Positions 10,830 to 45,600 of a stretch of DNA of 64,000 nt are shown here, one piece after another. The notes under the pieces were generated by a model. That model was not told the DNA's origin. It saw nothing but the letters and a program-made list of their open reading frames with translations, and made no database searches. The stretch is from Thermodesulfovibrionales bacterium (GTDB lineage: Bacteria; Nitrospirota; Thermodesulfovibrionia; Thermodesulfovibrionales; SM23-35): contig JBAQLU010000249.1 in assembly GCA_049302065.1 (NCBI GenBank), positions 18,539 to 82,538 on the forward strand, given 5' to 3'. Position 1 is the stretch's first letter, and each line of letters begins with the position of its first letter. The translations under genes were made by a program, and so were the position numbers.

Positions 10830-10909
10830 AAATCCTCTTTTTTATCAAAATTTGTTTATTTAAAATGATTTTGTCCTTATTCTCTCTTTCGTTTGCTCTA
10901 TGCTCTTTT
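10743..10909 (-). repeat. Heptamer-array inverted pair (AGAGCNN at 10743-10786; NNGCTCT at 10881-10909) flanking the start of cytochrome gene 9498..10829
   Basis: Read directly. The first arm is agctaag agcagag agctaaa agccaag agcttag agctcag. The opposite arm, tctctctttcgtttgctctatgctctttt, begins right after the stop of the upstream gene. Confidence 0.8.
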
Positions 10910-12088
10910 CTAATTCTTTGATGTATGACATACATTGCATCCATTTGTCTGACCGTTTCCCGGCCAGCCTTTATAATCCCATCTCATCATTTTGCAATAT
11001 GGCGATGCATGTGCCCGATGGCATGAAAGGCACGTAACCAGGTCTGTACCCAGCGTCACGGTACCGCTTGGTCCTGTCCAGCCACTCAAGCTAGGTCTTG
11101 CCACTGGAACTAATGGGTCATATGTACCTGTTCCACCGGAAGCACCGAAAGCGCTGGCGTATTCACCGGAATTTGGTATCAGCGCATCTGAAGGATGGCG
11201 AAACCATGGGCTCTGACCGCTTACTGTGTTGTCCTGTATATGAAAGTTCCTGTGGCATCCACAGCAAAAAGCTGTCATCGTATGATTCGTAAGACTTACT
11301 TGAGTAATCTTGCTAACAGAACCATCCCCTAAATACTCATTATGATCGCTTGCATTATAGGTGTATTGCCAGTCTTTATCTTCAATCCCTTCAACTCCGT
11401 GGCCATAAGTCGGCAGAGGTTCATGTCCCGCCAGAAAACGATACCATCCACCTGCTTCTCCTACCACCGTTGCCGAATCGTCTGCGTGATGATGTGGATA
11501 TACATGACAACCCTGACAACCGTACGTTCCAGCCAATACTCCAGCATCACTTTTTTCAGCTAAAGATTTATGGCAATTTTTTGTACTGCAGTTTTCCTCG
11601 CCAGATTTTCCCGGAGCAGCGGTAAGAGCTGGGTCTTTTTCATTCAAAAAAACATTATGACCTTTTGTGTCATCGGTCTTCACCCAGTAGAAATTGCCTG
11701 CGGCAAGCCCTTTTGTCGCATTATAGGATGGCTCAGTACTGTTGTAGACAATAGGAGCCATTGTGATAGGATCTTGCCAGGTAGTTCCGTCTGTCTTCGA
11801 ATGGCAACCTAAACATGATCCGCGCAGGAGGGATCGCTTAGTGTCTGTATCAGTCTCACTAGGAGCCAGATATTGCATATGGGCACCATTCTGACTGTTA
11901 TGCATGGTGTGGCATTTGAAACATTCACCGGTAACTTTTGCTTCTAATGGCAAGGTGTAACCCAACAAAACCATAATTATCGAGCACAAAGCAAGGCATA
12001 AAGAAGAAAAATGAAAAGTGCGTAACCTTTTTGCGTTTTTTTGCTCATGTTCTGCTTTCAGACACATTTTTTTTATGTTATGCTCCAC
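10910..12088 (-). CDS. OmcS-like multiheme cytochrome, paralog 1 (6 CXXCH + 1 CX4CH)
   Basis: 392-aa ORF. Motifs CFKCHTMHNSQNG, AAGNFYWVKTDDTKGHNV, FCCGCHRNFH..WFRHP, CLSCHRAHASPY and GCNVCHTSKN resemble my memory of G. sulfurreducens OmcS (CEGCHTMHNS, GGDFGWVK, KGHNIV, CLSCHRAHASGF, CNKCHAKD). The protein is paralogous to 25409-28939. Confidence 0.8.
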   Translation of the reverse strand: MEHNIKKMCLKAEHEQKNAKRLRTFHFSSLCLALCSIIMVLLGYTLPLEAKVTGECFKCHTMHNSQNGAHMQYLAPSETDTDTKRSLLRGSCLGCHSKTDGTTWQDPITMAPIVYNSTEPSYNATKGLAAGNFYWVKTDDTKGHNVFLNEKDPALTAAPGKSGEENCSTKNCHKSLAEKSDAGVLAGTYGCQGCHVYPHHHADDSATVVGEAGGWYRFLAGHEPLPTYGHGVEGIEDKDWQYTYNASDHNEYLGDGSVSKITQVSLTNHTMTAFCCGCHRNFHIQDNTVSGQSPWFRHPSDALIPNSGEYASAFGASGGTGTYDPLVPVARPSLSGWTGPSGTVTLGTDLVTCLSCHRAHASPYCKMMRWDYKGWPGNGQTNGCNVCHTSKN

Positions 12089-12367: not shown

Positions 12368-13687
12368 TTACTTCTTATGACATTGGATACAAAGCTGTCT
12401 CTTTCTGTCAAAATAGAGCATAAATTCAGCCTTTGATGAATGCATGCTGTGACAGGTAATGCAGGTAATTGGCTGACCATTTCGTGGATCTTTCACATCC
12501 TGTCCGAGCGGATGCGTTACTTTATGCTGCTGAGTATGGCATCTTGAACATGTCTGAATCTTATCTGCTTTAAAATAAAGGGGATTAAGAGAATGAGGAG
12601 GAATATGACATTCAAAGCATCTTCTGTCTTTCACAGGAACGCACTTGATCGATTTCAATGCCTTCTCCATGAGGATCGTCCTCTTCTCCGTATCTTTGTG
12701 ACAGGTATAGCACAGTTGAGATTCCTTCACTGTCAGGTTCTTCCTTTTTGACGCATGGTAGCTATGACACAGCGAGCATCCACCTTTTTCATCATTGATA
12801 TGAACATCACCCTCTTTGAGTTTGGTAGTGTCCTTCTTATGACAACTAAAGCATAAATCCTTGCCTGATATCTTAGTAGTTATCTTCTTATCAGCTACAA
12901 TCGGGTTATGGCATTGTTCACATTTTTTATCCAAAAAAGCTGTGTGGCCATATGGGCCGAGAAGTCCGCTGGTGTTGGAGGAATGTCCACTGTGGCATTC
13001 ATCGCATTTCAGCTTTTCAATAGCTAAGGTTATGGAGACGTTACCCGCCTTACACTTCGCTGCATGACAGCTTTTACATAATTTGTTGGGGTTATCACGG
13101 ATCTGGTTCTCTTCTGAAGATGCATGTGGATCATGACAAGATGAACATTCACCATTCTTGAAAGGAACATGCACATAAGATTTCTTTAATTGCTCTTTTA
13201 AAGCATCGTGACAATCCCAGCAGAGATCCTTTTGCACCTTTACCAAAAGACGTTTATTATCTCCACTGTGTGCAAAATGGCAATCTGTGCACACCCCTTT
13301 TTTGATTGCAAGATGTACAAAATCCTTCTTGAGTGCTTTTTTGATCCCCTCGTGGCAACCGAGGCACAAGGAATTGATATCTTCCTTTACCAGTCCCTTC
13401 ATATTACCTGCATGTATGTTATGACAGGCGATACATTTACCGTCCTTGAAGGGGAAATGGACATAACTGCGGGACAGGCTTTCCTTTAATTTTACATGGC
13501 ATCGGTAGCAAAGATCCGGAGCTTTTTCCTTAAGATCGCCCTGAGCGGATGCGAAAACAGCGAATAGCGTAGAGCTAAGAGCAAAGAGTACGAAGCATAT
13601 AGCATATAGCATATAGCGTAGAGCGTAGATTTTTTGCTCCGTGCTCTTTGCTCTCTGCTCTCTGCTCTCTGCTTTTTGCTTATTCAT
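12368..13687 (-). CDS. Hexadecaheme c-type cytochrome (c7/c3-type repeated CXXCH-pair architecture)
   Basis: I counted 16 CXXCH, with repeated (Y/F)VHxPFKxGxCxxCH units. I prefer the ATG at 13687 (MNKQKAESREQRAKS...), which overlaps the upstream stop as cATGAATAA, over the track start at 13714. Confidence 0.9.
   Translation of the reverse strand: MNKQKAESREQRAKSTEQKIYALRYMLYAICFVLFALSSTLFAVFASAQGDLKEKAPDLCYRCHVKLKESLSRSYVHFPFKDGKCIACHNIHAGNMKGLVKEDINSLCLGCHEGIKKALKKDFVHLAIKKGVCTDCHFAHSGDNKRLLVKVQKDLCWDCHDALKEQLKKSYVHVPFKNGECSSCHDPHASSEENQIRDNPNKLCKSCHAAKCKAGNVSITLAIEKLKCDECHSGHSSNTSGLLGPYGHTAFLDKKCEQCHNPIVADKKITTKISGKDLCFSCHKKDTTKLKEGDVHINDEKGGCSLCHSYHASKRKNLTVKESQLCYTCHKDTEKRTILMEKALKSIKCVPVKDRRCFECHIPPHSLNPLYFKADKIQTCSRCHTQQHKVTHPLGQDVKDPRNGQPITCITCHSMHSSKAEFMLYFDRKRQLCIQCHKK
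13558..13680 (-). repeat. Heptamer-array hairpin element (arm 13558-13629, T6 loop, arm 13636-13680), fully inside the N-terminal coding region of the 16-heme gene
   Basis: The sequence reads ...agcgtagagctaagagcaaagagtacgaagcatatagcatatagcatatagcgtagagcgtaga tttttt gctccgtgctctttgctctctgctctctgctctctgctttttgct. It includes two perfect 3-unit runs (gcatata x3 and gctctct x3). Confidence 0.85.
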
Positions 13688-15702: not shown

Positions 15703-17379
15703 TTACTGCTTAAATTTTTTTTCAATAGCCCGAATCTCTTCTTCATTTATCTTTATCTCAGCATCTTTCTTCAGTTTATCTATATACCTGTTTAATGTGG
15801 TGTTCACCTGTTCATTTACGTATGCTTTATGCACGTTATTCTTAACCTTGGCATATTCTTCGATCACTTCGCCTGTTATATCCTGTATTCTGAATATTTT
15901 ATAAAGTGATTCAATCTCGATTATCGGGCTTGTATCTCCTGCTTTCATGGAATCTATAATCTCCCCAAGAGGTTTAGGAAGTTCAGCCTTTGTAAACAAT
16001 CCCGCATCTCCGCCCTTTTCAGTTGCTGAATCTGCAGACTTTCTTTTTGCCAGCCATAAAAAATCAGCGCCTTTCTGCAAGCTGTCTAATATTTCCTGAG
16101 CCTCTTCTCGAGATTTTACTGTAATCTGTTGGATCTTATAACGGACAGGTTTGATAAAGCTTTTCTGATGTGTTGCATAGTACTCTTCTAAATTCTTACC
16201 TGTTACAACGATCTGAGGGATTATTACTCTCTTAATAAACGTATTCTTGAGAAGTTGATTCTCATAACGATATGCCATTTTCTTTAAGCCGGGCTTCATT
16301 TCGTAATGTCTGCTGAGTGCCTCATTGTCTATCACCTTGCGGTCAATCCAGCTCTCAAGGATATTCTCTTTCGATATTTTGGGAGAAGGTTTAATCATAG
16401 CCATAAAATCTTCAACAGTTAAAACAGCGCCATTTACCTCGACTAAATGTCTTTTATCCTTAGACCATTTTTCCCTCTCGCTATCACCATCCAGTTTAAT
16501 AGCAGAGAGAAGCTTCTCATCAATCTTTATGTTTGCCTTCTCACGAAGGTATTTCAGATATTCATCACTACGCTCTTTTTCCCTTTGTTTCCTGATGGCT
16601 TTCTGCAGGCTGCCTTTTACCTTTTCGAATTCCTCGTCCGGCGCCTCTTTTCTGCTCATTAACTTTACTATGTAAAATTTTTCTGACAATTTGATAATAT
16701 CACTGACTTCATCAGGTTTTAAAGGGGAAACAGCTTTTTGTATTTCAGTCGATAGAGAACCTCTTGTAAAAACAACTTCACTCTCATCTTTCTTGGATGG
16801 ATAGGTTGAGTATTTCTGAGCAAGCTCCTTGAAATTTTTTCCATTCTTAATTTGTTCTAAGATTTCTATAGCTTTCTCCTCCAATGATATTTCTATGATG
16901 CCCAGGGTAAACCGCTCATAATTTCTCTTGTAATAGTCTTTAATTTCTTCTTCTGTTATGAAAACCTTTTGCACAATCTCCTCATCATGAAGTATGACAA
17001 CAGATTCCCTCAGGATATATGCCTCAATGGCCTGTTTCACCTCAGGATACTGATCCATACCTGCATTGCGGGCCTCATGAATAATTAATCTATCATCTAT
17101 TAGCTTTTGAACATATTGTGATAAATTTAAGGCGCCTGCTGATGAAAGGTCTTCTCTGCGGTGAGCTATATTTAAAGCATATTTAAGATCTTCTTCTGTT
17201 ACAGGTTCACCATCAACAACCGCCAGTACTGCCTCCTTTTGTGAAAGCGATGCACAGCCACCCCAAAAAATCAGCAAACAGCATAGAGCGCAGAGCATAG
17301 AGCTTAAAACATAGAATTTTTTACTCTTAGCTCTTAGCTCTTTGCTCTTAGCTCTTTGCTCTTTGCTCTTTATCTCCAT
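15703..17379 (-). CDS. Peptidyl-prolyl cis-trans isomerase, SurA/PrsA/PpiD-like lipoprotein with two parvulin-type domains
   Basis: 558-aa ORF with a lipobox-like LIFWGGC. Two parvulin-like segments are present (...NGKNFKELAQKYSTYPSKKDE... and ...KGADFLWLAKRKSADSATEKGGDAGLF...). The ATG overlaps the upstream stop (aaATGGAGATAA). Confidence 0.85.
   Translation of the reverse strand: MEIKSKEQRAKSKELRAKSKKFYVLSSMLCALCCLLIFWGGCASLSQKEAVLAVVDGEPVTEEDLKYALNIAHRREDLSSAGALNLSQYVQKLIDDRLIIHEARNAGMDQYPEVKQAIEAYILRESVVILHDEEIVQKVFITEEEIKDYYKRNYERFTLGIIEISLEEKAIEILEQIKNGKNFKELAQKYSTYPSKKDESEVVFTRGSLSTEIQKAVSPLKPDEVSDIIKLSEKFYIVKLMSRKEAPDEEFEKVKGSLQKAIRKQREKERSDEYLKYLREKANIKIDEKLLSAIKLDGDSEREKWSKDKRHLVEVNGAVLTVEDFMAMIKPSPKISKENILESWIDRKVIDNEALSRHYEMKPGLKKMAYRYENQLLKNTFIKRVIIPQIVVTGKNLEEYYATHQKSFIKPVRYKIQQITVKSREEAQEILDSLQKGADFLWLAKRKSADSATEKGGDAGLFTKAELPKPLGEIIDSMKAGDTSPIIEIESLYKIFRIQDITGEVIEEYAKVKNNVHKAYVNEQVNTTLNRYIDKLKKDAEIKINEEEIRAIEKKFKQ
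17276..17371 (-). repeat. Heptamer-array hairpin element (arm 17276-17316, T6 loop, arm 17323-17371) encoding the N-terminus of the PPIase
   Basis: The sequence reads gcatagagcgcagagcatagagcttaaaacatagaa tttttt actcttagctcttagctctttgctcttagctctttgctctttgctcttta. In sense orientation it translates to KSKEQRAKSKELRAKSKK-FYVLSSMLCALCCLL. Confidence 0.85.
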
Positions 17380-18398
17380 TTTGCCTTTCTCATTCCTTTT
17401 ACTAAGTTTGCTATTGCTTTATATGATACACTTTCTGCTGAATACATTCTTCCCCAATCAAGCATAAATATATTGTCGTCGCCTTTTAACTGGAAGCTAT
17501 CACTCCATAAGATTTTATTTTTATGGGCGTCTATGAGTCTCGCACTGATAGAAGCTTCAGGTGGTGCAGTGCCCTCACCCTCTTTGTAAACTTCAACAGT
17601 GCCTACTATAATTCCATCTACTCCTGTAGTCCCTGATATAGCTTCTGTTTTTTCGAAGTCCAGTTCTCCTTTATCTCTGATCCTTAAATTCACTATTAAA
17701 AACCTGACGTCACCATATTCAAGGGGAACAAATTTTTTATTCTTGAATAATTCGTCTATAAACATATATGTTGCTATCATACCCACATCTTTCATCTTGC
17801 TTTTGTTCTGAAATGGCATTACAGCAATCCTGTAAGTCGACTCCGTCTCTTTTCCTGATGGAGCGGTATTAAAGGAGTCAAATAACTTATCTATGACCTT
17901 GGAGATAAGTCTGTCAATAGTTGTTATCCTGCCAAGTCCTAAGATTGTCGTAAAATCTTCTACCGTAGCAGCGGCATGATTTGCCCATAAAATAGTGTTA
18001 TCTGAAGAATCAACAAGACGGGCTGAAAAACCTACACGTGGATTCTCTCCTGAGGTAAATGAATTAACAGATCCTACTAAGATTGCCTTTACATTCAGCT
18101 CTTCACCTATTTTTTTTGCAATATCTTTTGAAATATATCCTGTTGATCTGATTCTTTCCTTAAGCAAAAATTTATTCAAACTATCATCATCCAGCACCTC
18201 AAACCCTTTTTCTTCTAATTTACTTCTTATCAAAGGCATAACCGTTGGTAGGGCATTCCTGTCTTCGCTGAAGTTTTCAAAAGGGAACAGGGCAATTTTT
18301 ACCTTCTGGTGTGTCTGAGAGGCACAACATACACTGGTGGCATAGAGTAAAAAACAAAAAGCTAAAATTAAAAAGTTTCTTGGGTTTCTTGGGTTCAT
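17370..18398 (-). CDS. Secreted protein with two tandem domains related to the two small lipoproteins downstream (motif-level resemblance to FlgO/CsgG/LpoB-type envelope lipoproteins)
   Basis: 342-aa ORF with a signal peptide. The two halves start with KIALFPFENFSED and RIAVMPFQNKSKM, the same (V/I)A(V/I)(L/M)PFxN motif as ORFs 18568 and 19205. The family assignment rests on this motif only. Confidence 0.6.
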   Translation of the reverse strand: MNPRNPRNFLILAFCFLLYATSVCCASQTHQKVKIALFPFENFSEDRNALPTVMPLIRSKLEEKGFEVLDDDSLNKFLLKERIRSTGYISKDIAKKIGEELNVKAILVGSVNSFTSGENPRVGFSARLVDSSDNTILWANHAAATVEDFTTILGLGRITTIDRLISKVIDKLFDSFNTAPSGKETESTYRIAVMPFQNKSKMKDVGMIATYMFIDELFKNKKFVPLEYGDVRFLIVNLRIRDKGELDFEKTEAISGTTGVDGIIVGTVEVYKEGEGTAPPEASISARLIDAHKNKILWSDSFQLKGDDNIFMLDWGRMYSAESVSYKAIANLVKGMRKAKWR

Positions 18399-18566
18399 TG
18401 GGTTTCTTGAGTTTGCTGTGTCAATTTTCTTTTTTTATAACGTTTTTCGTTTTTAACATTGCCCATATTTACCAGAATTCTTGCTTCCTTCCAACACTCT
18501 AAATCTTCAAACCTTTCAATTTTCATAACCCGATACACTGTGTAAACTCAAGAAACTCAAGAAACT
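18376..18566 (-). repeat. Inverted arrays of a 9-mer (TTTCTTGGG x5 degenerate at 18376-18420; CTCAAGAAA x2 at 18545-18566) around the start of gene 17370..18398
   Basis: One array reads tttcttggg tttcttggg ttcattggg tttcttgag tttgctgtg. The other reads aaactcaag aaactcaag aaac. About 120 nt of spacer separates them. The proximal array is translated as NPRNPRN. Confidence 0.75.
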
Positions 18567-19149: not shown

Positions 19150-19204
19150 CTTTTCTTACCTCTCAAAAACTTTCTGTTAGTAATGTTCACAACAATAAAC
19201 AACA

Positions 19205-19846
19205 TTAAAATAATGAACCGATAGACTCCCTTACTACCTTCCCGGCAGCTTCACTCAGTGAAGGTCCTTCTGAACCAAAATGTCTGGTCCAGAAGTCAGG
19301 GCCGCCGGTTGTATGACGCACCGACCAGACAATATTTCCTGAATTTACCTCAATCATTCTTAAATTTATGGTAACCTCCGGATAACTGACCGAAATACCC
19401 CTGCCTGTCCCGAATGCCTCTACAGATCCTAATATTACTGCTTCTACATTTAAAGCTTTTCCGATCTCCTGGATTTCTGAAACTTTTACAGATCCGAGGG
19501 ACTTGATCTTCATTTCCCTAAAAAGTCTTGTTACCTCACCCGGCTCAATCACATCAACATCCCTTGAAAGAAGTTCTGTAATTGCTATTCTCCTTATCTT
19601 TTCACCAGCATAATCATCCTGAGTAAAGTTTTCAAAAGGTAAAATAGCTACTTTTTTGACGCTTTCAACATCAGTTTTTGGACGGACAAAATGTGTGGGT
19701 CCACATCCTTGTATAAAAAACAGCAAAAAACATATGGCATAGAGCATAGAGCATAGAGCTAATCCCCCCACCCCCCCTTTTGTAAAGGGGGGTAAGGGGG
19801 GATTAACGTATAGAGTTTTTTTCATTTTGTTCTTTGCTATTTTCAT
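19205..19846 (-). CDS. Small lipoprotein, paralog of 18568..19149
   Basis: 213-aa ORF with lipobox IQGC and motifs VAILPFENFTQDDYAG and GGPDFWTRHFGSEGPSLSEA. The N-terminal ~33 codons run through a heptamer array and a GC palindrome. The true start is uncertain (ATG at 19846, 19825 or 19747). Confidence 0.6.
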   Translation of the reverse strand: MKIAKNKMKKTLYVNPPLPPFTKGGVGGLALCSMLYAICFLLFFIQGCGPTHFVRPKTDVESVKKVAILPFENFTQDDYAGEKIRRIAITELLSRDVDVIEPGEVTRLFREMKIKSLGSVKVSEIQEIGKALNVEAVILGSVEAFGTGRGISVSYPEVTINLRMIEVNSGNIVWSVRHTTGGPDFWTRHFGSEGPSLSEAAGKVVRESIGSLF

Positions 19847-19887
19847 TTTACTCTCTACTCTTAGCCCTTTGCTCTTCGCTCTTTGCT
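19731..19887 (-). repeat. Heptamer-array inverted pair (19731-19761 and ~19850-19887) with a nested GC-rich palindrome (19761-19803)
   Basis: The first arm is catatggcatagagcatagagcatagagcta. The palindrome is aatcccccccaccccccctttt g taaaggggggtaaggggggatt. The second arm is actctctactcttagccctttgctcttcgctctttgct, beginning just after the OMP stop codon. Confidence 0.8.
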
Positions 19888-19891
19888 ATTG

Positions 19892-22216
19892 TTACCAGAA
19901 TCTGCACGTCAGATTACCTCCGATATTATATGTCTTCAACTTTTTTTCTTTCTCATCACGTGTATAGATATAGTTTAACTGAAGATCTGAAAATTTCGTT
20001 ATGTACCACATTACATAGCTGCTCAGTGAATGAACAGTATTTGGTCCTGGTTCTGTTTTACTATGCTGGTAGCTTAAATTCATCCTGATTGCCGGCAAAA
20101 AAAGCCAGTCAATAATCATTCCTTCCGAGATATTTGTATCTCCATCCGTATCTGATACCTTAATATTACCCGAAAGATTGATAAACCTTCCAGGTCGATA
20201 GGTTAAAATAAAATAACCGTCCTTTGAAGTTGTGGAAGTGGTGCCTGATGTTCGTGTAAGACCAAACGAAAGATTTCCTGATAGTTTTTGGGTAAGGCGG
20301 GCGTCAAGCGTATTTCTTATATATTTTGTAGAAGTTCCGGTCTTTTCAGTAATTGTTGTTTCAGAAATTTGACGTTCTGTCGGAAAACTCTCTGATCGTG
20401 TATAACCAATATCAGTAATCATGTTGACATCCCTGTATAAGCGGGAACCGATTGTCAGGAAATACAGGGTATTCATGGATTGTTTCTCATCGAAACTGTA
20501 ACTGTAGGTTCTGATGAAAGATAAGTTTGTATTAAGTGTCGGCAGAGGAGATGAATTAAAGGTTAAGGAATATGTATCAGACACGATATCGGTTTTACTG
20601 ATATCCGTTTCGTCTTTATTGTCAAATGCTTCATTCCTTTGAAAACGCACTGTTGTTGTCAGCAGCCTGTGGGTAAGCCATGTTGAGCTTATCCCGTAGG
20701 TCCTTGTTATATTGCTTCTTAATTTATTGTCTTCTTCATTTGTAGGTTTTTTGAATATGCTTTGAAATGCACTCCCGATGGAACCCAAAACTGAATCGGG
20801 GTTTTCGTCTGCCTTGTTTAAAAAGTAATTAAGCGAAAAGGTGAGTCTGTTGAAGGGTCTTAAGTTAGCTAACAGGTTAATACCATGCGTAAAGAATGTG
20901 GTGACGTCCGTAATCTTTCCTGACTGTGGTATTACATCCGTACCGAATGCCTCGATTTCCGTCACTAAGACATCATTTATCGAAGCATTTTCCCTATTGA
21001 TCACTCTGAAATATGAACCACTTTGTGGATTAAAAAATCGTATCTCATACCGATAAACCGTATTCAGGATATCAAATGCAGATACTGTTACAGTCTGGAC
21101 AGGTATTTCCGTCCATGTAGCAGGCAGATTAAAGTCACTCAGGTATACCCTCCAGTTGTTTACATTGATGAGATTTGTATCTGATCTAACATCTTTATTT
21201 ACATAAATAAATAGTGTATCTACAGGTTTTGTTGTTGAAAATAATTGAATACCTATGTTATGGAATTTATTTCCGTTCTGGCCGATATTAATCGTACCTG
21301 CAGCAGTAGTTACCGGGACATTGTAAATATTATCAATCAGTGCATTGGCGGGGATCAATGTATCAACGTCTGGTTGGAGTTGTGTCCCCAGTCCATACCT
21401 GCCGGATGAGGGTGTACGCTCAAAAGGCACATTGCCGGTCTGAGTAGCATACTGGTCATTTTTGTTCCGGACATAATTTCCCTGATAGCCGGCTGATACA
21501 TTGGCTCTGCCGCTCCAGAAAGACTTATTGTAACCAAGGCTGTATAATGCATTAAGGCTGTTGTTGATTGTTTTTGAAATTGTACCTATCGGTGTTTTAC
21601 TCTCATTTCGTGTGTATGTGAGGTTATATGATATTTTTATATCTTTGTACAATACATCATACCAGGAACTACCTGAAAATCTATTATTAGTGGTATCAAT
21701 TTTCCTTTCTGAAAGATGGTCGTAATCCTTCTGCCTGTCAAACTGAAGTGACAGGGAAGGTAAATCATAAGGTCTCACATTCAAGCGTGCATAATAAAAT
21801 TCAGTGGTTTTTCTGCTGTCATCACTCAGATTTGCCGTTGACCACTGCTCCAGGCGCCGCGTTCCGACATCCAGACCATAAATAGGGTTTCGAAAAGAAA
21901 GATCTAATGCAGGCTCTATCGCCCTCTGGTAAGTCTTTGTTGTTTTATCCTGAGAATCGGTAGTATGCGAGTTTGTAAGATTAGTCCTGAGATATAGCTG
22001 ATAAGAGATCAGCGGGGTGATTGATTTGTCCAAACGAAGATAATAATTCTGATTAAGATTATCTGAGGTCTGACTCCTTTTGTCATCTTCGAACTGTTTC
22101 ATATAAGTATAATTTATATTAAACCATGCACTTGGGCCTTCAGCATAAGCTGATGAACAAAAAAAAAGCATAAAGCATAGAGCGAAGAGCATAGAGCGAA
22201 GAGCATAGAGTTTCAT
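19892..22216 (-). CDS. Large outer-membrane beta-barrel protein with an inserted discoidin-like jelly-roll domain
   Basis: 774-aa ORF with a signal peptide ending AYA/EG. Alternating amphipathic strands run throughout and the C-terminus is ...NLTCRFW (aromatic terminal residue typical of OMPs). Residues ~262-427 (ALIDNIYNVP...NWRVYLSD...GSYFRVIN...VLVTEIEAFG) look like the jelly-roll modules of the giant cytochrome. Confidence 0.75.
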   Translation of the reverse strand: MKLYALRSMLFALCFMLFFCSSAYAEGPSAWFNINYTYMKQFEDDKRSQTSDNLNQNYYLRLDKSITPLISYQLYLRTNLTNSHTTDSQDKTTKTYQRAIEPALDLSFRNPIYGLDVGTRRLEQWSTANLSDDSRKTTEFYYARLNVRPYDLPSLSLQFDRQKDYDHLSERKIDTTNNRFSGSSWYDVLYKDIKISYNLTYTRNESKTPIGTISKTINNSLNALYSLGYNKSFWSGRANVSAGYQGNYVRNKNDQYATQTGNVPFERTPSSGRYGLGTQLQPDVDTLIPANALIDNIYNVPVTTAAGTINIGQNGNKFHNIGIQLFSTTKPVDTLFIYVNKDVRSDTNLINVNNWRVYLSDFNLPATWTEIPVQTVTVSAFDILNTVYRYEIRFFNPQSGSYFRVINRENASINDVLVTEIEAFGTDVIPQSGKITDVTTFFTHGINLLANLRPFNRLTFSLNYFLNKADENPDSVLGSIGSAFQSIFKKPTNEEDNKLRSNITRTYGISSTWLTHRLLTTTVRFQRNEAFDNKDETDISKTDIVSDTYSLTFNSSPLPTLNTNLSFIRTYSYSFDEKQSMNTLYFLTIGSRLYRDVNMITDIGYTRSESFPTERQISETTITEKTGTSTKYIRNTLDARLTQKLSGNLSFGLTRTSGTTSTTSKDGYFILTYRPGRFINLSGNIKVSDTDGDTNISEGMIIDWLFLPAIRMNLSYQHSKTEPGPNTVHSLSSYVMWYITKFSDLQLNYIYTRDEKEKKLKTYNIGGNLTCRFW

Positions 22217-22282
22217 GCTCTTTTTCCTTTGCTCTTAGCTCTTAGCTCATTGCTCATTGCTCTTTGCTCATTGCTCTTCGCT
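22167..22282 (-). repeat. Heptamer-array hairpin with the OMP start codon in the loop (arm 22167-22210, loop tttcat = ATGAAA, arm 22217-22282)
   Basis: The sequence reads agcataaagcatagagcgaagagcatagagcgaagagcatagag tttcat gctctttttcctttgctcttagctcttagctcattgctcattgctctttgctcattgctcttcgct. Confidence 0.85.
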
Positions 22283-23936
22283 AATAAGGAAACATCGCTA
22301 TCCCATACGGTTTTTTCCCTACAGGGATAACCTTTTCTTCCCTGCTCGTAGTTTTATCTATTACCGAGACATTATCCGAACCCCTATTGACTACGTAAAT
22401 CTTTCTACCTTCGGGATCTAAGATTAAGGATCTTGGAGAATTCCCTACCGTGATTGTTCCCATTACCGGTGCTATGGTTGTTTTAACCGTGCTTAATGCT
22501 TCGGAAAATGGCCTAATGATCATTATCTCGCCGGAGATCTCCTTTAATAAATAGATTCTGTCAAGATCAGGGTCAGAGATAATCCCTACAACAGAAGTCC
22601 CGACATTTGTAATAGAACTGACAGCTCCGGGTCTATTAATAATCTGAATAATATCAATAACCGAGAGATTGTCATAATTATAATTACCTACATAAACCTT
22701 TGCCCTTTGATAATCGGCTGCAATCGCTATTGGTCTCCAGTCAACACTTAATTGCATAATTCCATCAACCCTGCTGTTATGAATATCCATTCTTATAATC
22801 GAGACATCCCTGGAATTCTTATTCGCAACATATACATTGAAAAACTTCTCACGATAATTTCTTAATAAAAGGAGATCATCAAAGCTGAGAAATCTTGAAC
22901 CTGACAGACTCTCAATCGGTGGGTCTGCGGCGATTGCGATAGGTCCACTCCCTACATTTATTTTTTCAATCTCCTGATAGGTTGAGGTATCAATAACAGA
23001 GACGTTGTCAGAACCATAATTTGTTACAAATATAAGTTCTTTTTTAGGAGATATCTTTGTAACAGCTACCCCTTCTGGTTCCCTGCCAAACCTTATCGGT
23101 ATTTCCATCTCAACCTTATGGACAGTAGGGTCTATAACGGAAATACTGTTTGAGCCTGAATTAGCCACATAAACCCGTGGATATTCTTTAACCTGGCTCA
23201 CTGCAACGCCCCTCGGTTTCTTTCCCACCATTATAGTTGCAACGATTTCACCTGATTGTCTGTTAATGACAGAGACATTATTTGAACCTTCATTCGTCAC
23301 ATAGATAAGCAAAGTACTTAATTCCGGGACCTGACCTTTGACAGCGAATACAGGATTGAAAAGGTATCCGTCTGCAACGGAAGCATCGGCGTTCCAGTTT
23401 AAAAATAATGACGTGTTCTGGTTTCTTGTTATCGTAATATCTATACTTATCTCTATCCCTTCGGGTGGAAGCGCCAGATTTGCTGTTTTGTCTTTTTTCC
23501 GGATCAAAGCTTGTTTCACTATGAGCTGAAGTTTCTTGTATCTGCCCTCGGGCAGATATCTCTCACCCAGACGCACCTGACGACCCGTAAGAGATATTGA
23601 ATTTATATTCACCGGGGTATTCATAATCTCTCTGTATGTACCGTCTTCTGACAGAATATTGACTGCTGCAAGTTCAAATGTTAAATCCGTTGAGGTTATA
23701 TCAGGCCCTTTCAGAAGAACAGTAATCTGCCCATTGGTTGTACCCGGAGACTCAATGTACTCCTGAACAGATGCACACCCCACCCCGAAAACAAGCAAAG
23801 AGCAAAGAGCTAATAGCAAAGAGTTCTTAGCAAAGAGCTTAGAGCGAAGAGCAAAAAGTTTAGAGCCGCCGACTAAAAGCCTAAAGCGAATAACTAAATT
23901 TTGAGATTTTTTATAAAGCCGCTCATCATTCGACAT
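22281..23936 (-). CDS. Lipoprotein with an N-terminal DUF4382-like domain and a YVTN-family beta-propeller
   Basis: 551-aa ORF with lipobox VFGVGC. Six YVTN-type blades are visible: YVTNEGSNNVSVI, YVANSGSNSISVID, FVTNYGSDNVSVID, YVANKNSRDVSII, YVGNYNYDNLSVID and YVVNRGSDNVSVID. Confidence 0.85.
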   Translation of the reverse strand: MSNDERLYKKSQNLVIRFRLLVGGSKLFALRSKLFAKNSLLLALCSLLVFGVGCASVQEYIESPGTTNGQITVLLKGPDITSTDLTFELAAVNILSEDGTYREIMNTPVNINSISLTGRQVRLGERYLPEGRYKKLQLIVKQALIRKKDKTANLALPPEGIEISIDITITRNQNTSLFLNWNADASVADGYLFNPVFAVKGQVPELSTLLIYVTNEGSNNVSVINRQSGEIVATIMVGKKPRGVAVSQVKEYPRVYVANSGSNSISVIDPTVHKVEMEIPIRFGREPEGVAVTKISPKKELIFVTNYGSDNVSVIDTSTYQEIEKINVGSGPIAIAADPPIESLSGSRFLSFDDLLLLRNYREKFFNVYVANKNSRDVSIIRMDIHNSRVDGIMQLSVDWRPIAIAADYQRAKVYVGNYNYDNLSVIDIIQIINRPGAVSSITNVGTSVVGIISDPDLDRIYLLKEISGEIMIIRPFSEALSTVKTTIAPVMGTITVGNSPRSLILDPEGRKIYVVNRGSDNVSVIDKTTSREEKVIPVGKKPYGIAMFPY

Positions 23937-24289
23937 AATTCCTCGAGTTTTAACAAGATTGTTTGTTTAACGTGATTTTGTATATATTCTCTTTTTTCGA
24001 AAAGAATCATCATGTTTGCATTTTCGAAACAAGATCTTTTAGCAATATTTAAAAATTGAACAAATTCCTTTTTGGAATTACTTCCCGAACCTTCTGCTAT
24101 ATTATTTGATATTGATAGAGCAGCTCCTCTTAACTGCTCAGCAAATTTATATAACTTTTTCCTTTCAAGATCATCAGAAATATCAAACAAATTTCCCGCA
24201 ATCTCTATTGATTTTTTCCATATCTCTAAATTCTCAAATCTAAACATCTGTATTTCCTACTCTTTGCTCTATGCTCTTTGCTCTTCGCT
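23793..24289 (-). repeat. Split heptamer-array pair (long arm 23793-23892, short opposite arm 24259-24289) bracketing the four-helix-bundle gene
   Basis: The long arm is aagcaaagagcaaagagctaatagcaaagagttcttagcaaagagcttagagcgaagagcaaaaag.... The opposite arm is actctttgctctatgctctttgctcttcgct. The 354-nt ORF 23894..24247 lies between them. Confidence 0.75.
23894..24247 (-). CDS. Four-helix-bundle protein (23S rRNA intervening-sequence protein family)
   Basis: 117-aa ORF: FENLEIWKKSIEIAGNLFDIS...FAEQLRGAALSISNNIAEGSGSNSKKEFVQFLNIAKRSCFE. The FxxLxVWQKA...QLxRAAxSIxxNIAEG...FL..A.GS..E pattern is diagnostic of this family. Confidence 0.85.
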   Translation of the reverse strand: MFRFENLEIWKKSIEIAGNLFDISDDLERKKLYKFAEQLRGAALSISNNIAEGSGSNSKKEFVQFLNIAKRSCFENANMMILFEKREYIQNHVKQTILLKLEELCRMMSGFIKNLKI

Positions 24290-25271
24290 ATTCATTTGCT
24301 TTAAACACCTGTATCCTGTCATTAAAGGTATCGGCAACAAGTACCCTGCCCTGAGAGTCAACAGCTATATCCCTCGGATACTGAAACCATCCTTCACCCC
24401 AGCCCAGGCCGCCAAATTCAAATAAATATTTCCCATCCTTATCATAGGCAGATACAGTATGACGCATATAATCTACCACATACATCCTGCCATTGCGATT
24501 ATCCACACCAACTGCCCGAGCCCGGCTTAGCTTACCCTTGCTTCCTCCCTTTTGCCCGAATTTAAAAAGAAATTTTCTATTTTCATCATATACATAGATG
24601 TGTCCTTCCTCCTCGCTTACAAGATATATCCTGCCTTCTTTATCCACAGTCACGTAGTCTAATTTCACCTTCTTCCCTTCTTCCTCGGGTGATAAGATCT
24701 CCAATAGCTCCCCCTGATTATTCAGAATCAGAATGCCTGAAAAGTATGACCCGGCTACGTAAATATTTCCATTTTTATCCGTAGACAGGCGATAGGGCAT
24801 AAATGAATCGGCTCCCTCAAAACCCTTTAAATAGATATCACGCTCCCATTTAAAACATGCATTAAAAACCGAAATCTTATGTCTGGGATTCTCCTTTGTT
24901 GCGCTATGAGCAACATAAAGGTTACCTTCAGCATCTACAGTCAAGCCCTGTGGTGTTTCAATACCGTACTTTTTGCTAAGGGTAAAGACGGGGAAAAAAT
25001 CTGATGTATATATTATTATCTTAGTTTGACTAATAACATAAATCTCATTACTGATCGGGTCTGAGAACACAAAAGAAGGGAAGTGTATCTTACCCCCTTC
25101 CTCATCCTCAGTTATAACATCAAGATAGGTTACCGAGGTAACGGCCTGCTGTGCAACGAGTTTGTGAGGAATACATAGCACATAGCAAAGAGCAAGGAGC
25201 AAACAGCTAAAAGCTAACAAAGTAGCACGTTTTTTTCTCTCAAGATCATTTAAATTCTCAAACCTAAACAT
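24288..25271 (-). CDS. Secreted NHL-repeat six-bladed beta-propeller protein
   Basis: 327-aa ORF. NHL blades include LYVAHSATKENP, IYVAGSYFSGILILNNQG, IYLVSEEEGHIYVYDENRKFLFKFG, MYVVDYMRHTVSAYDKDGKYLFEFG and VLVADTFNDRIQVF. The first 14 codons are a remnant of a four-helix-bundle gene. Confidence 0.85.
   Translation of the reverse strand: MFRFENLNDLERKKRATLLAFSCLLLALCYVLCIPHKLVAQQAVTSVTYLDVITEDEEGGKIHFPSFVFSDPISNEIYVISQTKIIIYTSDFFPVFTLSKKYGIETPQGLTVDAEGNLYVAHSATKENPRHKISVFNACFKWERDIYLKGFEGADSFMPYRLSTDKNGNIYVAGSYFSGILILNNQGELLEILSPEEEGKKVKLDYVTVDKEGRIYLVSEEEGHIYVYDENRKFLFKFGQKGGSKGKLSRARAVGVDNRNGRMYVVDYMRHTVSAYDKDGKYLFEFGGLGWGEGWFQYPRDIAVDSQGRVLVADTFNDRIQVFKANE
25173..25226 (-). repeat. Single heptamer array encoding the h-region of the NHL protein signal peptide
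   Basis: The array reads acatagcacatagcaaagagcaaggagcaaacagctaaaagctaacaaagtagc. In sense orientation it translates to ATLLAFSCLLLALCYVLC. Confidence 0.75.
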
Positions 25272-25408
25272 CTTAATCTCCTATATGCCATTTACTATCC
25301 TTAGCTTGGACAGGTATGATCAATTATGTCAATTATTTGCTCTTAAAAAAATAAGATAAGGAGAGCAGAAATTTCTGCTCTCCTTATCTTCAGTGTCTCA
25401 AGTTCTAA

Positions 25409-26422
25409 CTACCGCTGAGCAACATGGCAGGTTTCACAGCCATTGTTGTTTGTTGAATTCCCTGCATTCATAGTACTGTAGGTAAACCTCAGGATGTCTT
25501 TCTGGGTAGTACCGTGGGCCCTGTGGCAGCTCATGCACGAGGCCTTCCCATTAGCTGTTGTGTATGCCGTACCGGTAGTCATGTCCGTAGTCAACATGCC
25601 GGCAATCTGTGCAGTTGTAAATGCGAACGGGGTCTCATTAAGCTCTGCGTTTGTTGGTGTAAATAATGTAGCCACAATATTGGTTATCAAAGCTTCTTCG
25701 TCAGTCGGATGGCGTTTGAAGGGACTTGTTCCAGTGTCAGTTGTATTGGCCGACCCGTGGAAGTTCCCGTGGCAGTTGCCGCAGAAGGCGCTTATACTAT
25801 CAGTGCCGTCGCCGTCGTATACGTTGTGGTTGCCAGATGTAGCGCCGCCCGCTTCATAAATAGAAGACTCCTTACCACCTACTAAAGTTCCGGCTGCACC
25901 GGTATTGCCTGCTTGTACATACAGCCATCTGAAGGCAGTGGAAGTACCGTGATGCATACCATGTACACCCAGGTCCGGGGAGGTACCATGTTTGCCGTGG
26001 CATCCGTATGTGCCCTCACATGTCACCTTGTTTGAAGCCCAGGTTAATCCGGCAGTGTAGCCGGGCGGAGTCTTAACCCAGACATCACCAGCGACAATAT
26101 CGTGTCTCGTGTCTTGATCAGCAGCACCAACATCGTAATCCCCACCTGCTGTAGAAAGGGCACCGGCACCAACACCACTAGCATTGGCAGTTCCATCGAT
26201 CTTGGGAGCAAGCGCTGCGCCGCCACTGACATGACAGGCCAAACAAGAGTACAATGTGAGATAGGGTTGCTGGCCAGTGGTACCCAAGTCGCTCACCCCA
26301 TTTTGGCTATCGTGCATAGTGTGGCAGGTGACGCATGTTCCGGTAACCGCAGCATTAGCAAAGCCATACGTTAGGACAAGAGAAAGAAGAGCAATAACAC
26401 CTACGATTAATATCTTTTTCAT
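25409..26422 (-). CDS. OmcS-like multiheme cytochrome, paralog 2 (5 CXXCH + 1 CX5CH)
   Basis: 337-aa ORF with a normal signal peptide (ANA/AV). Motifs are CVTCHTMHDSQNG, CLACH, CEGTYGCHG, FCGNCHGNFH..FKRHP, CMSCHRAHG and GCETCH. Confidence 0.8.
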   Translation of the reverse strand: MKKILIVGVIALLSLVLTYGFANAAVTGTCVTCHTMHDSQNGVSDLGTTGQQPYLTLYSCLACHVSGGAALAPKIDGTANASGVGAGALSTAGGDYDVGAADQDTRHDIVAGDVWVKTPPGYTAGLTWASNKVTCEGTYGCHGKHGTSPDLGVHGMHHGTSTAFRWLYVQAGNTGAAGTLVGGKESSIYEAGGATSGNHNVYDGDGTDSISAFCGNCHGNFHGSANTTDTGTSPFKRHPTDEEALITNIVATLFTPTNAELNETPFAFTTAQIAGMLTTDMTTGTAYTTANGKASCMSCHRAHGTTQKDILRFTYSTMNAGNSTNNNGCETCHVAQR

Positions 26423-26759: not shown

Positions 26760-27896
26760 CTATTGGTTTTTTTTGGTATGACAGGCAAGGCAGCCCTTTT
26801 TTGTCACATTCCGAGTATCCATTTTTGAATAATCCCATCTCAGGATATCAGAATATTGGCTTGCATGTGACCTGTGACAGGAAAGGCACATAAGTATACT
26901 GTTTGAATCAACAACTTCTTCTCCACCTGTGGGCTGTCCAAAAGCAACAGGGGCTTCGAGACTGTACGTAACATAACCCTGATACTCAGAACTTGCAAAA
27001 CCACCATGTACAGTTGCAAAGGCAATATCAGCAGGATGCCTGCGCCATATGGAGTTATAAGCTTGCCCAACCTCCCTGCTGCCGCCAAGATTGGGATTGG
27101 GATGGAACTTGGCATGACATTCGCCGCAGAGATAACTTATGGTATCCATGGTATCATGAGCGATATCACCCTTGTAGCCGTTATGATTATTGATAGTGGC
27201 CAGATATTCCCAGTCTCTATGTTCCGTGCCTTTTATTCCGTAAAGAAAGCGATAACTTTTGCCAACTGTTGAGCCATCGATAATACGGTCATCTGAATGG
27301 TGCGCCCCATATAGAGATTGATAAAGGTTTTCAATTGTCCTGTTCCCATGACATCCCCATGTTCCTGCACAGGTAAGCTGCTGCTGGCCAGGCCAATATG
27401 CAGGCCCGGTTCCTCCCGGTATCAGTACATTCTTCATAAATCCAGGAGGGACATCCATTGGAGGGTTTTCCTGGCGGGAGATGCCTTTGATATTGTGCCC
27501 CTTTGAATAATCAGGATTATATTCATCTGCAACGTAATAAAAATTCCCGCCTGCCAGATCATCGTTTTGCAGATGATGCAGTATCTGAGGAATCCTGGTC
27601 TTTCCAGTGGTGATGATGCTTTTTGTGCCGTTCGGATTCCGGCCATGACAGCCGATACAGCCGCCTTGCGTGAGGGCAGGAAATGGTCCCTGACGATCTC
27701 CATAGGTAACCTCCTTGCCTTCATAACTGTAATGCATGCTATGGCAATCTTTGCATTTCCCTTTTACCCTTGCATCAACAACAGAAGCAAAGAGCATATA
27801 GCATAGAGCAAAGAGTAAAATATAGAAAACCCTTGCTCCTTGTTCTTTGCTCTTTGCTCTTAGCTCTTTGCTCTTGGCTATTTTCCTGTATGGCAT
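26760..27896 (-). CDS. OmcS-like multiheme cytochrome, paralog 3 (5 CXXCH + 1 CX5CH)
   Basis: Track ORF 26760..27905. I prefer the ATG at 27896 (MPYRKIAKSKELRAKSKEQ...). Motifs are CKDCHSMH, CIGCH, AGGNFYYV..KGHNI, CAGTWGCHG, YRFL, CGECHAKFH..WRRHP, CLSCHRSHAS, ILRWDY and GCLACHT. Confidence 0.8.
   Translation of the reverse strand: MPYRKIAKSKELRAKSKEQGARVFYILLFALCYMLFASVVDARVKGKCKDCHSMHYSYEGKEVTYGDRQGPFPALTQGGCIGCHGRNPNGTKSIITTGKTRIPQILHHLQNDDLAGGNFYYVADEYNPDYSKGHNIKGISRQENPPMDVPPGFMKNVLIPGGTGPAYWPGQQQLTCAGTWGCHGNRTIENLYQSLYGAHHSDDRIIDGSTVGKSYRFLYGIKGTEHRDWEYLATINNHNGYKGDIAHDTMDTISYLCGECHAKFHPNPNLGGSREVGQAYNSIWRRHPADIAFATVHGGFASSEYQGYVTYSLEAPVAFGQPTGGEEVVDSNSILMCLSCHRSHASQYSDILRWDYSKMDTRNVTKKGCLACHTKKNQ
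27783..27879 (-). repeat. Heptamer-array hairpin element (arm 27783-27826, loop aaaccct, arm 27834-27879) encoding the N-terminus of OmcS-like paralog 3
   Basis: The sequence reads agaagcaaagagcatatagcatagagcaaagagtaaaatataga aaaccct tgctccttgttctttgctctttgctcttagctctttgctcttggct. It translates to AKSKELRAKSKEQGARVFYILLFALCYMLFA. Confidence 0.85.
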
Positions 27897-44030: not shown

Positions 44031-44140
44031 ATAATCAGAATACAGAACTCAGAATACAGAGCACAGATTACAGAACACAGATTTTAATTTCTTATTAGAC
44101 TTCTTTGGTCTATGCTCTGTGTTCTGTCTTCTGTGATCTC
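44031..44140. repeat. Inverted heptamer arrays (CAGANNN x7 / NNNTCTG x4) in the acsC-acsB intergenic gap
   Basis: The sequence reads cagaata cagaact cagaata cagagca cagatta cagaaca cagattt ...loop... tctatgc tctgtgt tctgtct tctgtga tct. Confidence 0.85.
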
Positions 44141-45509: not shown

Positions 45510-45600
45510 AAAGGATTCCAGGATTTAAGTGGTCAAGGGTTCAAGCGATTAAACTTTCATTTATATGAACCCTCGAATCCTTGAATCCTCGACCCCTTAT
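45510..45600. repeat. Inverted short-repeat array (CAAGG-type) in the acsD-acsC intergenic gap
   Basis: The sequence reads aaaggattccaggatttaagtggtcaagggttcaagcg ...loop... gaaccctcgaatccttgaatcctcgaccccttat. Confidence 0.8.

Follow-up and report, generated by a model that had tools for sequence, protein, structure and literature searches.

The NHL gene and its 5′ end

We analysed a 64,000-nt stretch of a Thermodesulfovibrionales bacterium genome (contig JBAQLU010000249.1, positions 18,539 to 82,538; hereafter the window), in which the gene for an NHL beta-propeller protein begins with sequence resembling two pieces of a four-helix-bundle (4HB) gene that lies intact about 1 kb downstream. The minus-strand neighbours in the window are exported-protein genes, encoding multihaem cytochromes, the NHL propeller, a YVTN propeller lipoprotein, an outer-membrane (OM) protein, CsgG/LpoB-like lipoproteins and a SurA-like peptidyl-prolyl isomerase (PPIase). 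The NHL protein has 707 homologs with E<=1e-10 in Nitrospirota/Thermodesulfovibrionia. The features around the 5′ end of its gene are as follows, with orthologous loci denoted by L numbers.

24288 to 25271, minus strand: NHL/SBBP six-bladed beta-propeller gene, 327 amino acids (aa), predicted secreted (Pfam NHL, E=9.5e-18).
25251 to 25271, minus strand: likely 4HB-derived start codon and NHL codons 1–7 (MFRFENL), 20/21 nt identical to 24227-24247.
25230 to 25250, minus strand: NHL codons 8–14 (NDLERKK), corresponding to 4HB codons 25–31 (17/21 nt, in-frame offset of 24 codons) and the likely source of the RKK charge cluster of the n-region.
25272 to 25286, minus strand: Shine-Dalgarno (SD) region, AGGAG with a 6-nt spacer, homologous to that of the intact 4HB gene by alignment; the SD is also in L002 and L086.
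25173 to 25229, minus strand: imperfect tandem-heptamer array (xxxTTGC / TGCTCTT type) of about 6–8 units, encoding the h-region RATLLAFSCLLLALCYVLC; probable 3′ arm of a decayed cassette (Tandem Repeats Finder (TRF) rows 25173-25207 and reading of the sequence; array also in L002 and L086).
25287 to 25345, minus strand: spacer in which an AAGAGCA-type upstream arm has decayed, less so in L002 and L086, and in which about 45 nt look like the 3′ end of a membrane-protein gene (comparison of the 5′ regions of the window, L002, L086, L005, L004 and L088).
25353 to 25390, minus strand: intrinsic terminator after the cytochrome gene, with a 17-bp stem and T7; the stem consists of inverted heptamer-like units GGAGAGCAG/CTGCTCTCC.

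The NHL open reading frame (ORF) opens with ATGTTTAGGTTTGAGAATTTA AATGATCTTGAGAGAAAAAAA, encoding MFRFENL NDLERKK. The intact 4HB gene (23894-24247) opens with ATGTTTAGATTTGAGAATTTA and encodes a protein beginning MFRFENL(EIWKKSIEIAGNLFDIS)DDLERKK. The original prediction, made from the window alone, was that NHL codons 1–14 match two pieces of this gene, and they do, at 20/21 and 17/21 nt. The second piece does lie further inside the intact gene, but it begins 51 nt after the first rather than the roughly 60 nt proposed. When we aligned the two 5′ ends at the nucleotide level, the match extended beyond what had been reported, into the SD region (tAGGAgATtaAGATG in the NHL gene versus tAGGAaATacAGATG in the 4HB gene). 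Identity from −15 to +21 is 29/36 nt, while the runner-up 36-mer in the whole window reaches 22/36, and the core of the first piece is recovered by blastn-short with E=1e-4. The similarity also held up against shuffled sequence: none of 300 shuffles reached 29/36, and the 17/21 of the second piece was reached by 0.16% of 100,000 composition-preserving shuffles at any offset and by 0.076% in frame. The heptamer array starts right after ERKK, as had also been predicted.

The same arrangement is present in the independent assemblies L001, L002, L003, L086 and L087, so it is not an assembly artefact. The matched pieces sit inside a conserved Pfam domain of a family found across phyla, and the NHL gene must therefore be the recipient. 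Only 14 codons survive (1–7 and 25–31, at 25230-25271) and they encode no 4HB domain; the remnant is a derived fragment and not a member of the PF05635/TIGR02436 family. Its descent from a 4HB gene is statistically secure, given the significant collinear nucleotide identity and the relatives that keep other codons of the donor.

The intact cassette 1 kb downstream

The intact 4HB gene stands between two complementary arrays, and its 3′ end overlaps the start of the next gene:

23894 to 24247, minus strand: intact type-B 4HB gene, 117 aa (PF05635 1-106/106, E=2.6e-29; TIGR02436, E=2.7e-29; PDB 2GSC, E=4e-9).
24250 to 24289, minus strand: upstream arm of AAGAGCA-type heptamers (TRF), pairing with 23794-23860 in minimum-free-energy (MFE) and centroid folds.
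23794 to 23880, minus strand: downstream arm of TGCTCTT-type heptamers, which in translation supply the signal-peptide h-region of the YVTN lipoprotein (…SLLLALCSLLVFGVGC).
22281 to 23936, minus strand: YVTN beta-propeller lipoprotein gene; its ATG (23936) and its n-region MSNDERLYKKSQNL fall within the 3′ end of the 4HB gene, read in a different frame, an arrangement conserved in L006, L018, L023, L054 and L026.

The 4HB protein scores well above the curated cut-offs of both families (PF05635, 102 bits with a cut-off of 33.8; TIGR02436, 101.6 bits with a cut-off of 24), and its nearest solved structure is 2GSC. In the predicted RNA fold, MFE and centroid alike, the arms pair as a stem of about 31 bp that encloses the whole 4HB ORF; the fold energy of the cassette is -129 kcal/mol versus -111 ± 6 for shuffles (z=-3.1). 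The YVTN ATG is preceded by GAGGA, and the lipobox follows directly after the heptamer array. Over three frames the TGCTCTT array reads C-S-L-L-F-A-L and the AAGAGCA array K-S-K-E-Q-R-A, with no stops in either orientation, and the downstream array thus encodes Cys/Ser/Leu/Phe/Ala whatever the frame. The arrays must be translated, because the neighbours all encode exported proteins and the lipobox or cleavage motif directly follows the array.

Set beside this cassette, the layout of 25173-25345 is that of a cassette minus its middle, with a decayed AAGAGCA arm, an SD and ATG with codons 1–7 and 25–31, and a TGCTCTT arm. The residual upstream arm in 25287-25345 is still predicted to pair with the h-region array, which is itself probably the 3′ arm of the same cassette. 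The membrane-protein gene resembled by about 45 nt of this spacer precedes the NHL gene in other species. The heptamer-like stem of the terminator at 25353-25390 suggests that inverted array pairs may grade into terminators.

Probable start site and signal peptide of the NHL protein

An AGGAG stands 6 nt ahead of the ATG at 25271, and no other ATG precedes the hydrophobic core. The first internal Met lies near residue 157, in keeping with the earlier statement that no alternative ATG occurs before residue 100 or so. Orthologs all conserve ...PHKL(N/V)A|Q followed by (T)Y(L/I)DSITEDEEG, with a hydrophobic stretch directly before, and because of this conserved stretch initiation must be upstream of the array. 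By inspection, on which all our assignments of n-, h- and c-regions rest, the NHL N-terminus comprises RKKR, a hydrophobic stretch of 19 residues and PHKLVA|QQ, with the cleavage-region motif conserved in orthologs. A precursor started at 25271 would begin MFRFENLNDLER… and would have MFRFENLNDLERKKR as its n-region, ATLLAFSCLLLALCYVLCI as its h-region and PHKLVA|QQ as its c-region. This peptide presumably works as a Sec signal, and ATG 25271 is probably the start used.

Remnant states in orthologous genes

We examined 80 species-representative loci with NHL orthologs, mostly from Thermodesulfovibrionia/Nitrospirota metagenome-assembled genomes (MAGs), and searched every reading frame with the 4HB profile. 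The 5′ end in L002 and L003 is identical to that of the window, within 2.2 kb of locus at 92.5% nt identity. L086, whose NHL protein shares 84% aa identity, carries MFRFGNLNDLERKKC with GGAG-N6-ATG kept, the frame intact and the same two-piece remnant. The upstream arm before the NHL gene is seven bases longer in L002, and about five decayed AAGAGCA-type units are recognisable in L086. Phase variation by heptamer slippage found no support at this array. The array is imperfect (82% matches), and its length and unit count are the same in the window, L002 and L086, although their proteins differ by up to 16%.

Other relatives have kept other parts of the donor. In L005 (P0054), 4HB codons 1–17 (MFRFDGLKIWKRSAEIA) are joined to the array at a TTGC microhomology. 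L013 (P0093) has the same SD sequence AGGAGATTAA and retains about codons 1–12, but the ATG has become ATT and a downstream ATG is used, which is still within the remnant frame and upstream of the h-region. The window has codons 25–31, which L005 lacks, and L005 has codons 8–17, which the window lacks; the two must therefore descend independently from a more complete gene. The states of the window, L005 and L013 cannot be derived from one another, so that a fuller ancestral 4HB gene decayed independently in these lineages.

The internal deletion and truncation of an intervening-sequence (IVS)-type gene proposed in the original prediction are consistent with the L005 and L013 states, and the comparison of orthologs that it called for found the fused frame and SD kept in L002/L003 and L086. 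Its further proposal, exaptation of the fragment as the translation start of a secreted protein, gains support from the fragment homology, the SD and the frame kept in relatives, with the use of ATG 25271 itself argued from comparison. The exaptation is not a one-off but one of several decay states of a cassette made of inverted arrays and a 4HB gene.

N-terminal rebuilding of this kind appears to have occurred repeatedly. Among 120 database homologs the mature NHL domain is 66-94% identical, whereas the N-termini are hypervariable and belong to a small number of unrelated modules. A type-A 4HB fragment (MKIERFEDLECWKEA followed by the array) forms the N-terminus in 7 of the 120, and L021 has such a fragment with its ATG lost. 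In P0010 (L008, 4465-5532), the NHL N-terminus consists of roughly the first 38 residues of a nickel-insertion protein of the LarC type (PF01969) and an array-encoded h-region; owing to this fragment, NCBI names P0010 a 'nickel insertion protein'. Other N-terminal modules look like translated cassette arms, with NPMNPRN resembling CCAAGAAAC repeats and VTSNGNV…NYVTAGRNG resembling GGTAACG repeats. In a neighbour-joining tree of mature NHL domains, which is star-like and does not rigorously count independent events, the N-terminal types are scattered.

Proposed origin and alternative explanations

We think it likely that 25230-25286 is the leftover of a type-B 4HB cassette formerly situated between the NHL gene and the gene upstream of it, and that the NHL gene took its SD, ATG and n-region from this cassette. 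In this lineage a cassette has an AAGAGCA-type array, then a PF05635 4HB gene preceded by an SD of its own, then a TGCTCTT-type array complementary to the first; the arrays can pair as a long stem whose loop holds the 4HB gene. Where the cassette is intact, the ATG of the next gene lies inside the 4HB 3′ end, and the 3′ array is translated as the hydrophobic core of the signal peptide of the next exported protein. Before the NHL gene, two deletions, one of 17 internal codons and one of everything after codon 31 (an order that we infer), would have removed the usual 3′ leader ATG and set the SD and ATG of the 4HB gene itself in frame with the array, as the sole ATG available.

Several points weigh against this account. 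None of the 80 loci has an intact 4HB gene directly upstream of the NHL gene (the intact genes found there are downstream of it), so that the ancestral state is a reconstruction. The NHL n-region has three acidic residues, which is unusual though offset by RKKR. The start at ATG 25271 is argued by comparison, and the 4HB-derived ATG has proved dispensable in L013, where another ATG was available. A strong terminator lies 80 nt upstream, and we found no consensus promoter between it and the NHL gene. Finally, there is an in-frame TTG at codon 18 (25218-25220).

This last point leads to the foremost alternative, that the remnant is 5′ untranslated sequence, that the NHL gene starts further downstream, for example at this TTG, and that the open frame is fortuitous. 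The absence of stops from the arrays and the A-rich remnant favours long open frames, into which gene callers prolong their predictions; the L013 frame is still open though its homologous ATG is lost, and predicted folds base-pair the SD and ATG of the NHL gene. However, the TTG has no SD at a usable distance and a start there would leave no charged n-region, while GTG31 is positioned after the hydrophobic core. Three lineages, the most distant at 84% aa identity, have preserved AGGAG or GGAG together with the ATG and the frame, and the alternative ATG of L013 has stayed in the remnant frame ahead of the h-region. We regard a downstream start as unlikely.

The remnant may also have been kept as an RNA element whose residual stem sequesters the SD and ATG and regulates NHL translation, the start codon being a secondary contribution; such a role is compatible with descent from a cassette. 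In the MFE structures of the window and L002, AGGAG pairs with CUCCU of the array, and the two remnant pieces fold into a local hairpin that contains the ATG; for 25140-25410, terminator included, the fold has z=-3.2. The predicted SD pairing differs in L086, however, and sequestration is seen in structure predictions from too few sequences for covariation. We consider this role quite unlikely.

A recent partial copy of the 5′ end of the neighbour at 23894-24247, by gene conversion or array-mediated recombination, would account for the 20/21 nt identity to a gene 1 kb away, and the repeated arrays are recombination substrates. It is nonetheless very improbable. L002 and L003 carry the identical remnant without a type-B 4HB gene downstream, and the L086 remnant adjoins a type-A gene; these remnants without a type-B neighbour led us to reject a recent copy. 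The remnant SD variant GGAGAWTAAS is common to L013 and L086 and not to the neighbour (GGAAATACAG), and the 20/21 match is accounted for by a type-B 5′ end that all species conserve. Chance or low sequence complexity, despite the A-rich second piece, has practically no probability and is ruled out by the shuffles (0/300 for the first piece and p~0.001 for the second, with composition preserved, collinear and in frame), and the orthologs show independent 4HB-derived N-termini.

Generality of the cassette

Intact or nearly intact 4HB genes occupy the spacer between the NHL and YVTN genes in L006, L018, L023, L054, L010, L015 and L019 and also in L086, in all eight cases with complementary flanking arrays. 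Complementary flanks surround most of the 21 4HB genes that we inspected, with shared 7-mers exceeding all 200 shuffles in 9 of the 21. The arms vary by 4HB subtype: AAGAGCA/TGCTCTT for type B (MFRFENLEIWKKS), GTTTACT/AGTAAAC for type A (MKI[TK]RFEDLECWKEARILVN), CGTAACC/GGTAACG for a third type and TTAGTCA/TGACTAA for a fourth. The same spacer holds type B in the window and type A in its close relative L086, and type-A arms are nested within AAGAGCA units in L004 and L088. Closely related genomes can carry different subtypes, each with arms of its own, which places the repeats with the cassette and not with the host.

Each of the six type-B cassettes has the start of its downstream ORF within the 3′ end of the 4HB gene, in a different frame, with the conserved leader MS[ND]D[KE]R[FL]YK and a conserved GAGGAwTT SD. 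The downstream gene in L026 is a different one, for an OM protein, so the leader travels with the cassette. Judged from these predicted starts, type-B cassettes routinely supply the start of the gene downstream. The YVTN proteins of L002 and the window have mature parts that are 89% identical, and their signal-peptide cores come from different repeats, TTTACTG x4 in L002 versus TGCTCTT in the window. The content of the NHL-to-YVTN spacer differs as well (L002 6870-7620 versus window 23781-24290, with flanking genes at 89-93% nt identity); that of L002 holds a 4HB scrap 'FKDLEVYQLA*', a REP-like 'HSRESGNP' element and a 66-aa ORF.

A further 4HB gene is found in L002 at 12471-12782, between the CsgG-like and LpoB-like genes, where it encodes a 98-aa PF05635 protein and has TTAGTCA/TGACTAA flanks. 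The corresponding 312-nt open frame in L003 matches the 4HB profile equally, with a called ORF of 54 aa, and the matching spacer of the window (19150-19204) holds no 4HB sequence. Between L002/L003 and the window, this cassette shows presence/absence polymorphism.

We also looked beyond these loci. Another 12 MFRF-type 4HB genes from metagenome contigs are mostly flanked by complementary arrays. They came from a metagenome scan with ATGTTYAGRTTTGNNRRTTTR, a pattern too degenerate for the purpose, as 12 of the 120 stretches recovered were real 4HB starts; no new fusion was found among the 120. In four of these metagenome contigs tRNA-Trp(CCA) is directly 3′ of an MFRFE-type cassette that has complementary heptamer arms (L156 2799-3258, L162 10626-11105, L201 at about 2035-2503 and L103 at about 6413-6904). 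Thr-Tyr-Thr tRNA genes are near in L156, L162 and L201, and ARAGORN found tRNA-Trp alone in L103. This stable-RNA context is reminiscent of rRNA IVSs. A regex and hidden Markov model screen of 1136 long ORFs in the fetched loci, which had been chosen around the NHL gene, found fused 4HB N-termini on NHL genes alone, and a 41-aa artificial query of a type-A fragment plus array recovered short remnant ORFs and nothing else from a set of 5.8 billion proteins.

We tentatively propose that 4HB genes are the cargo of mobile IVS-like cassettes with subtype-specific inverted heptamer arms, which colonise the spacers before the genes of exported proteins in Thermodesulfovibrionia, replace one another there and act as portable start and signal-peptide modules; the 4HB protein may recognise its cognate heptamer stem. 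In a cassette of this kind the h-region would come from the 3′ arm, and the 4HB gene would contribute the SD, ATG and n-region, through its 3′ end or, once decayed, through its 5′ end.

Other decayed cassettes and repeat pairs in the window

Two other stretches of the window resemble decayed cassettes:

18399 to 18530, minus strand: second decayed cassette, a 43-codon type-A 4HB N-terminal remnant (MKIERFEDLECWKEARILVN…; hmmsearch E=2.4e-7).
10793 to 10910, minus strand: third decayed cassette, AAGAGCA units joined directly to type-B 4HB codons ~85-117, with stops and 5′-deleted (tblastn E=2.6e-5).

The second (region 18375-18566) is flanked by the 9-nt repeats GTTTCTTGA and TCAAGAAAC. The stop of its remnant overlaps (ATGA) the ATG of the gene at 17370-18398, and the MNPRNPRN N-terminus of that gene is encoded by the downstream repeat. 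The third has 79% nt identity to 23830-23990, the 3′ end of the intact cassette, and its 3′ leader gives the start and n-region (MLKNKWFNKKSQKF) of the 443-aa cytochrome gene at 9498-10829.

Inverted heptamer-array pairs without a 4HB insert also occur at gene starts (13594-13680, 17280-17371, 19737-19887, 22165-22282 and 27786-27883). In these pairs the AAGAGCA arm is translated as the n-region (KSKEQRAKSKE…) and the TGCTCTT arm as the h-region. A single hairpin thus carries a complete signal peptide in its two arms, and the start codon either precedes the first arm or sits at the loop or close to it. At 44036-44134 and 45566-45600 (minus strand), inverted pairs of CAGAACA/TGTTCTG heptamers and of TGAACCCT-type octamers lie in the leaders of the genes at 41819-44017 and 44147-45490. 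The products of these two genes do not look exported, and inverted arrays are thus not restricted to signal-peptide regions. A G/C-rich palindromic element at 19740-19800 (minus strand) is translated as PPLPPFTKGGVGG in the N-terminal region of the gene at 19205-19846. The same motif appears as PPSPPFTKGGMGG in the N-terminus of the L009 NHL ortholog, a dispersed repeat read through as leader peptide.

Comparison with known systems

The PF05635 family was first named from its 23S rRNA IVS context (Leptospira, Coxiella burnetii; S23p ORF). In the window elements the protein family is the same, and the ORF is likewise predicted to lie in the loop of a long stem formed by flanking inverted repeats. 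The elements differ from an IVS in lying in the spacers of an exported-protein operon, flanked by protein-coding genes (some metagenome copies stand before tRNA-Trp), and we found no match to rRNA or any other Rfam family in the window. Moreover, the stem arms consist of tandem heptamers where an IVS has unique inverted repeats, and the 3′ arm is translated with the next gene. Published work describes PF05635 ORFs in 23S rRNA IVSs, excision of the IVS by RNase III and reductive evolution of the Coxiella ORF (PMC4990558). The selfish behaviour is shared, and the decay described there for the Coxiella ORF has its counterpart in the decay seen three times in this window.

PF05635 genes have also been found wedged between cas genes (PMC3936711). 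Like such dispersed genes and Avd, the accessory protein of diversity-generating retroelements, the genes described here belong to the same fold family and are small genes wedged between unrelated genes of an operon. There is no reverse transcriptase or template/variable repeat near; Pfam searches of the neighbouring ORFs across 9.5-29 kb gave cytochromes, propellers, an OM protein, lipoproteins and a PPIase.

Intergenic TAACTGA heptamer arrays are known at start codons in Beggiatoaceae, Cyanobacteria and Bacteroidetes, where they are immediately upstream of or overlap the start codon; they can be translated in one orientation, and an influence on translation has been suggested for them (PMC4679880). 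That paper does not contain the terms 'helix bundle', 'S23' or 'signal peptide'. The window arrays resemble these and the cyanobacterial short tandemly repeated repetitive (STRR) sequences in having 7-nt units directly upstream of or overlapping start codons. Unlike the TAACTGA arrays, they have the units AAGAGCA/TGCTCTT and others, come in inverted pairs that enclose 4HB genes, and encode signal-peptide cores. Our literature search found no paper linking PF05635 genes to heptamer arrays or signal peptides, although such an absence is not proof of novelty.

The NHL case resembles other start captures from truncated genes in that a deletion joins an SD, an ATG and first codons in frame to another gene; in P0010 (L008) the donor is LarC. 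It differs from the usual N-terminal gene fusion in its donor, which is a recurrent selfish cassette, and in its outcome, which is a signal-peptide n-region and not a new domain. The acceptor junction differs too, being a repeat that encodes a hydrophobic peptide in every frame and that should be unusually permissive. Start-codon capture from a truncated gene is known; the donor cassette, the frame-independent acceptor repeat and the recurrence set this case apart as a new form of it.

Significance

The NHL gene provides a concrete, datable case in which the debris of a selfish gene gave a bacterial gene a new ribosome-binding site, a new start codon and the n-region of its signal peptide. Since the 7-nt repeat is hydrophobic in every frame, many deletion end-points are tolerated, although the upstream start must still match the frame of the gene. 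Gene callers and signal-peptide predictors will mis-handle such 5′ ends in MAGs. One testable model links intergenic heptamer arrays to the function-unknown PF05635 family and to the extremely variable N-termini of exported proteins in Thermodesulfovibrionia. If the tentative view of these cassettes as mobile elements is true, a selfish element would be repeatedly overwriting the signal peptides of a whole operon.

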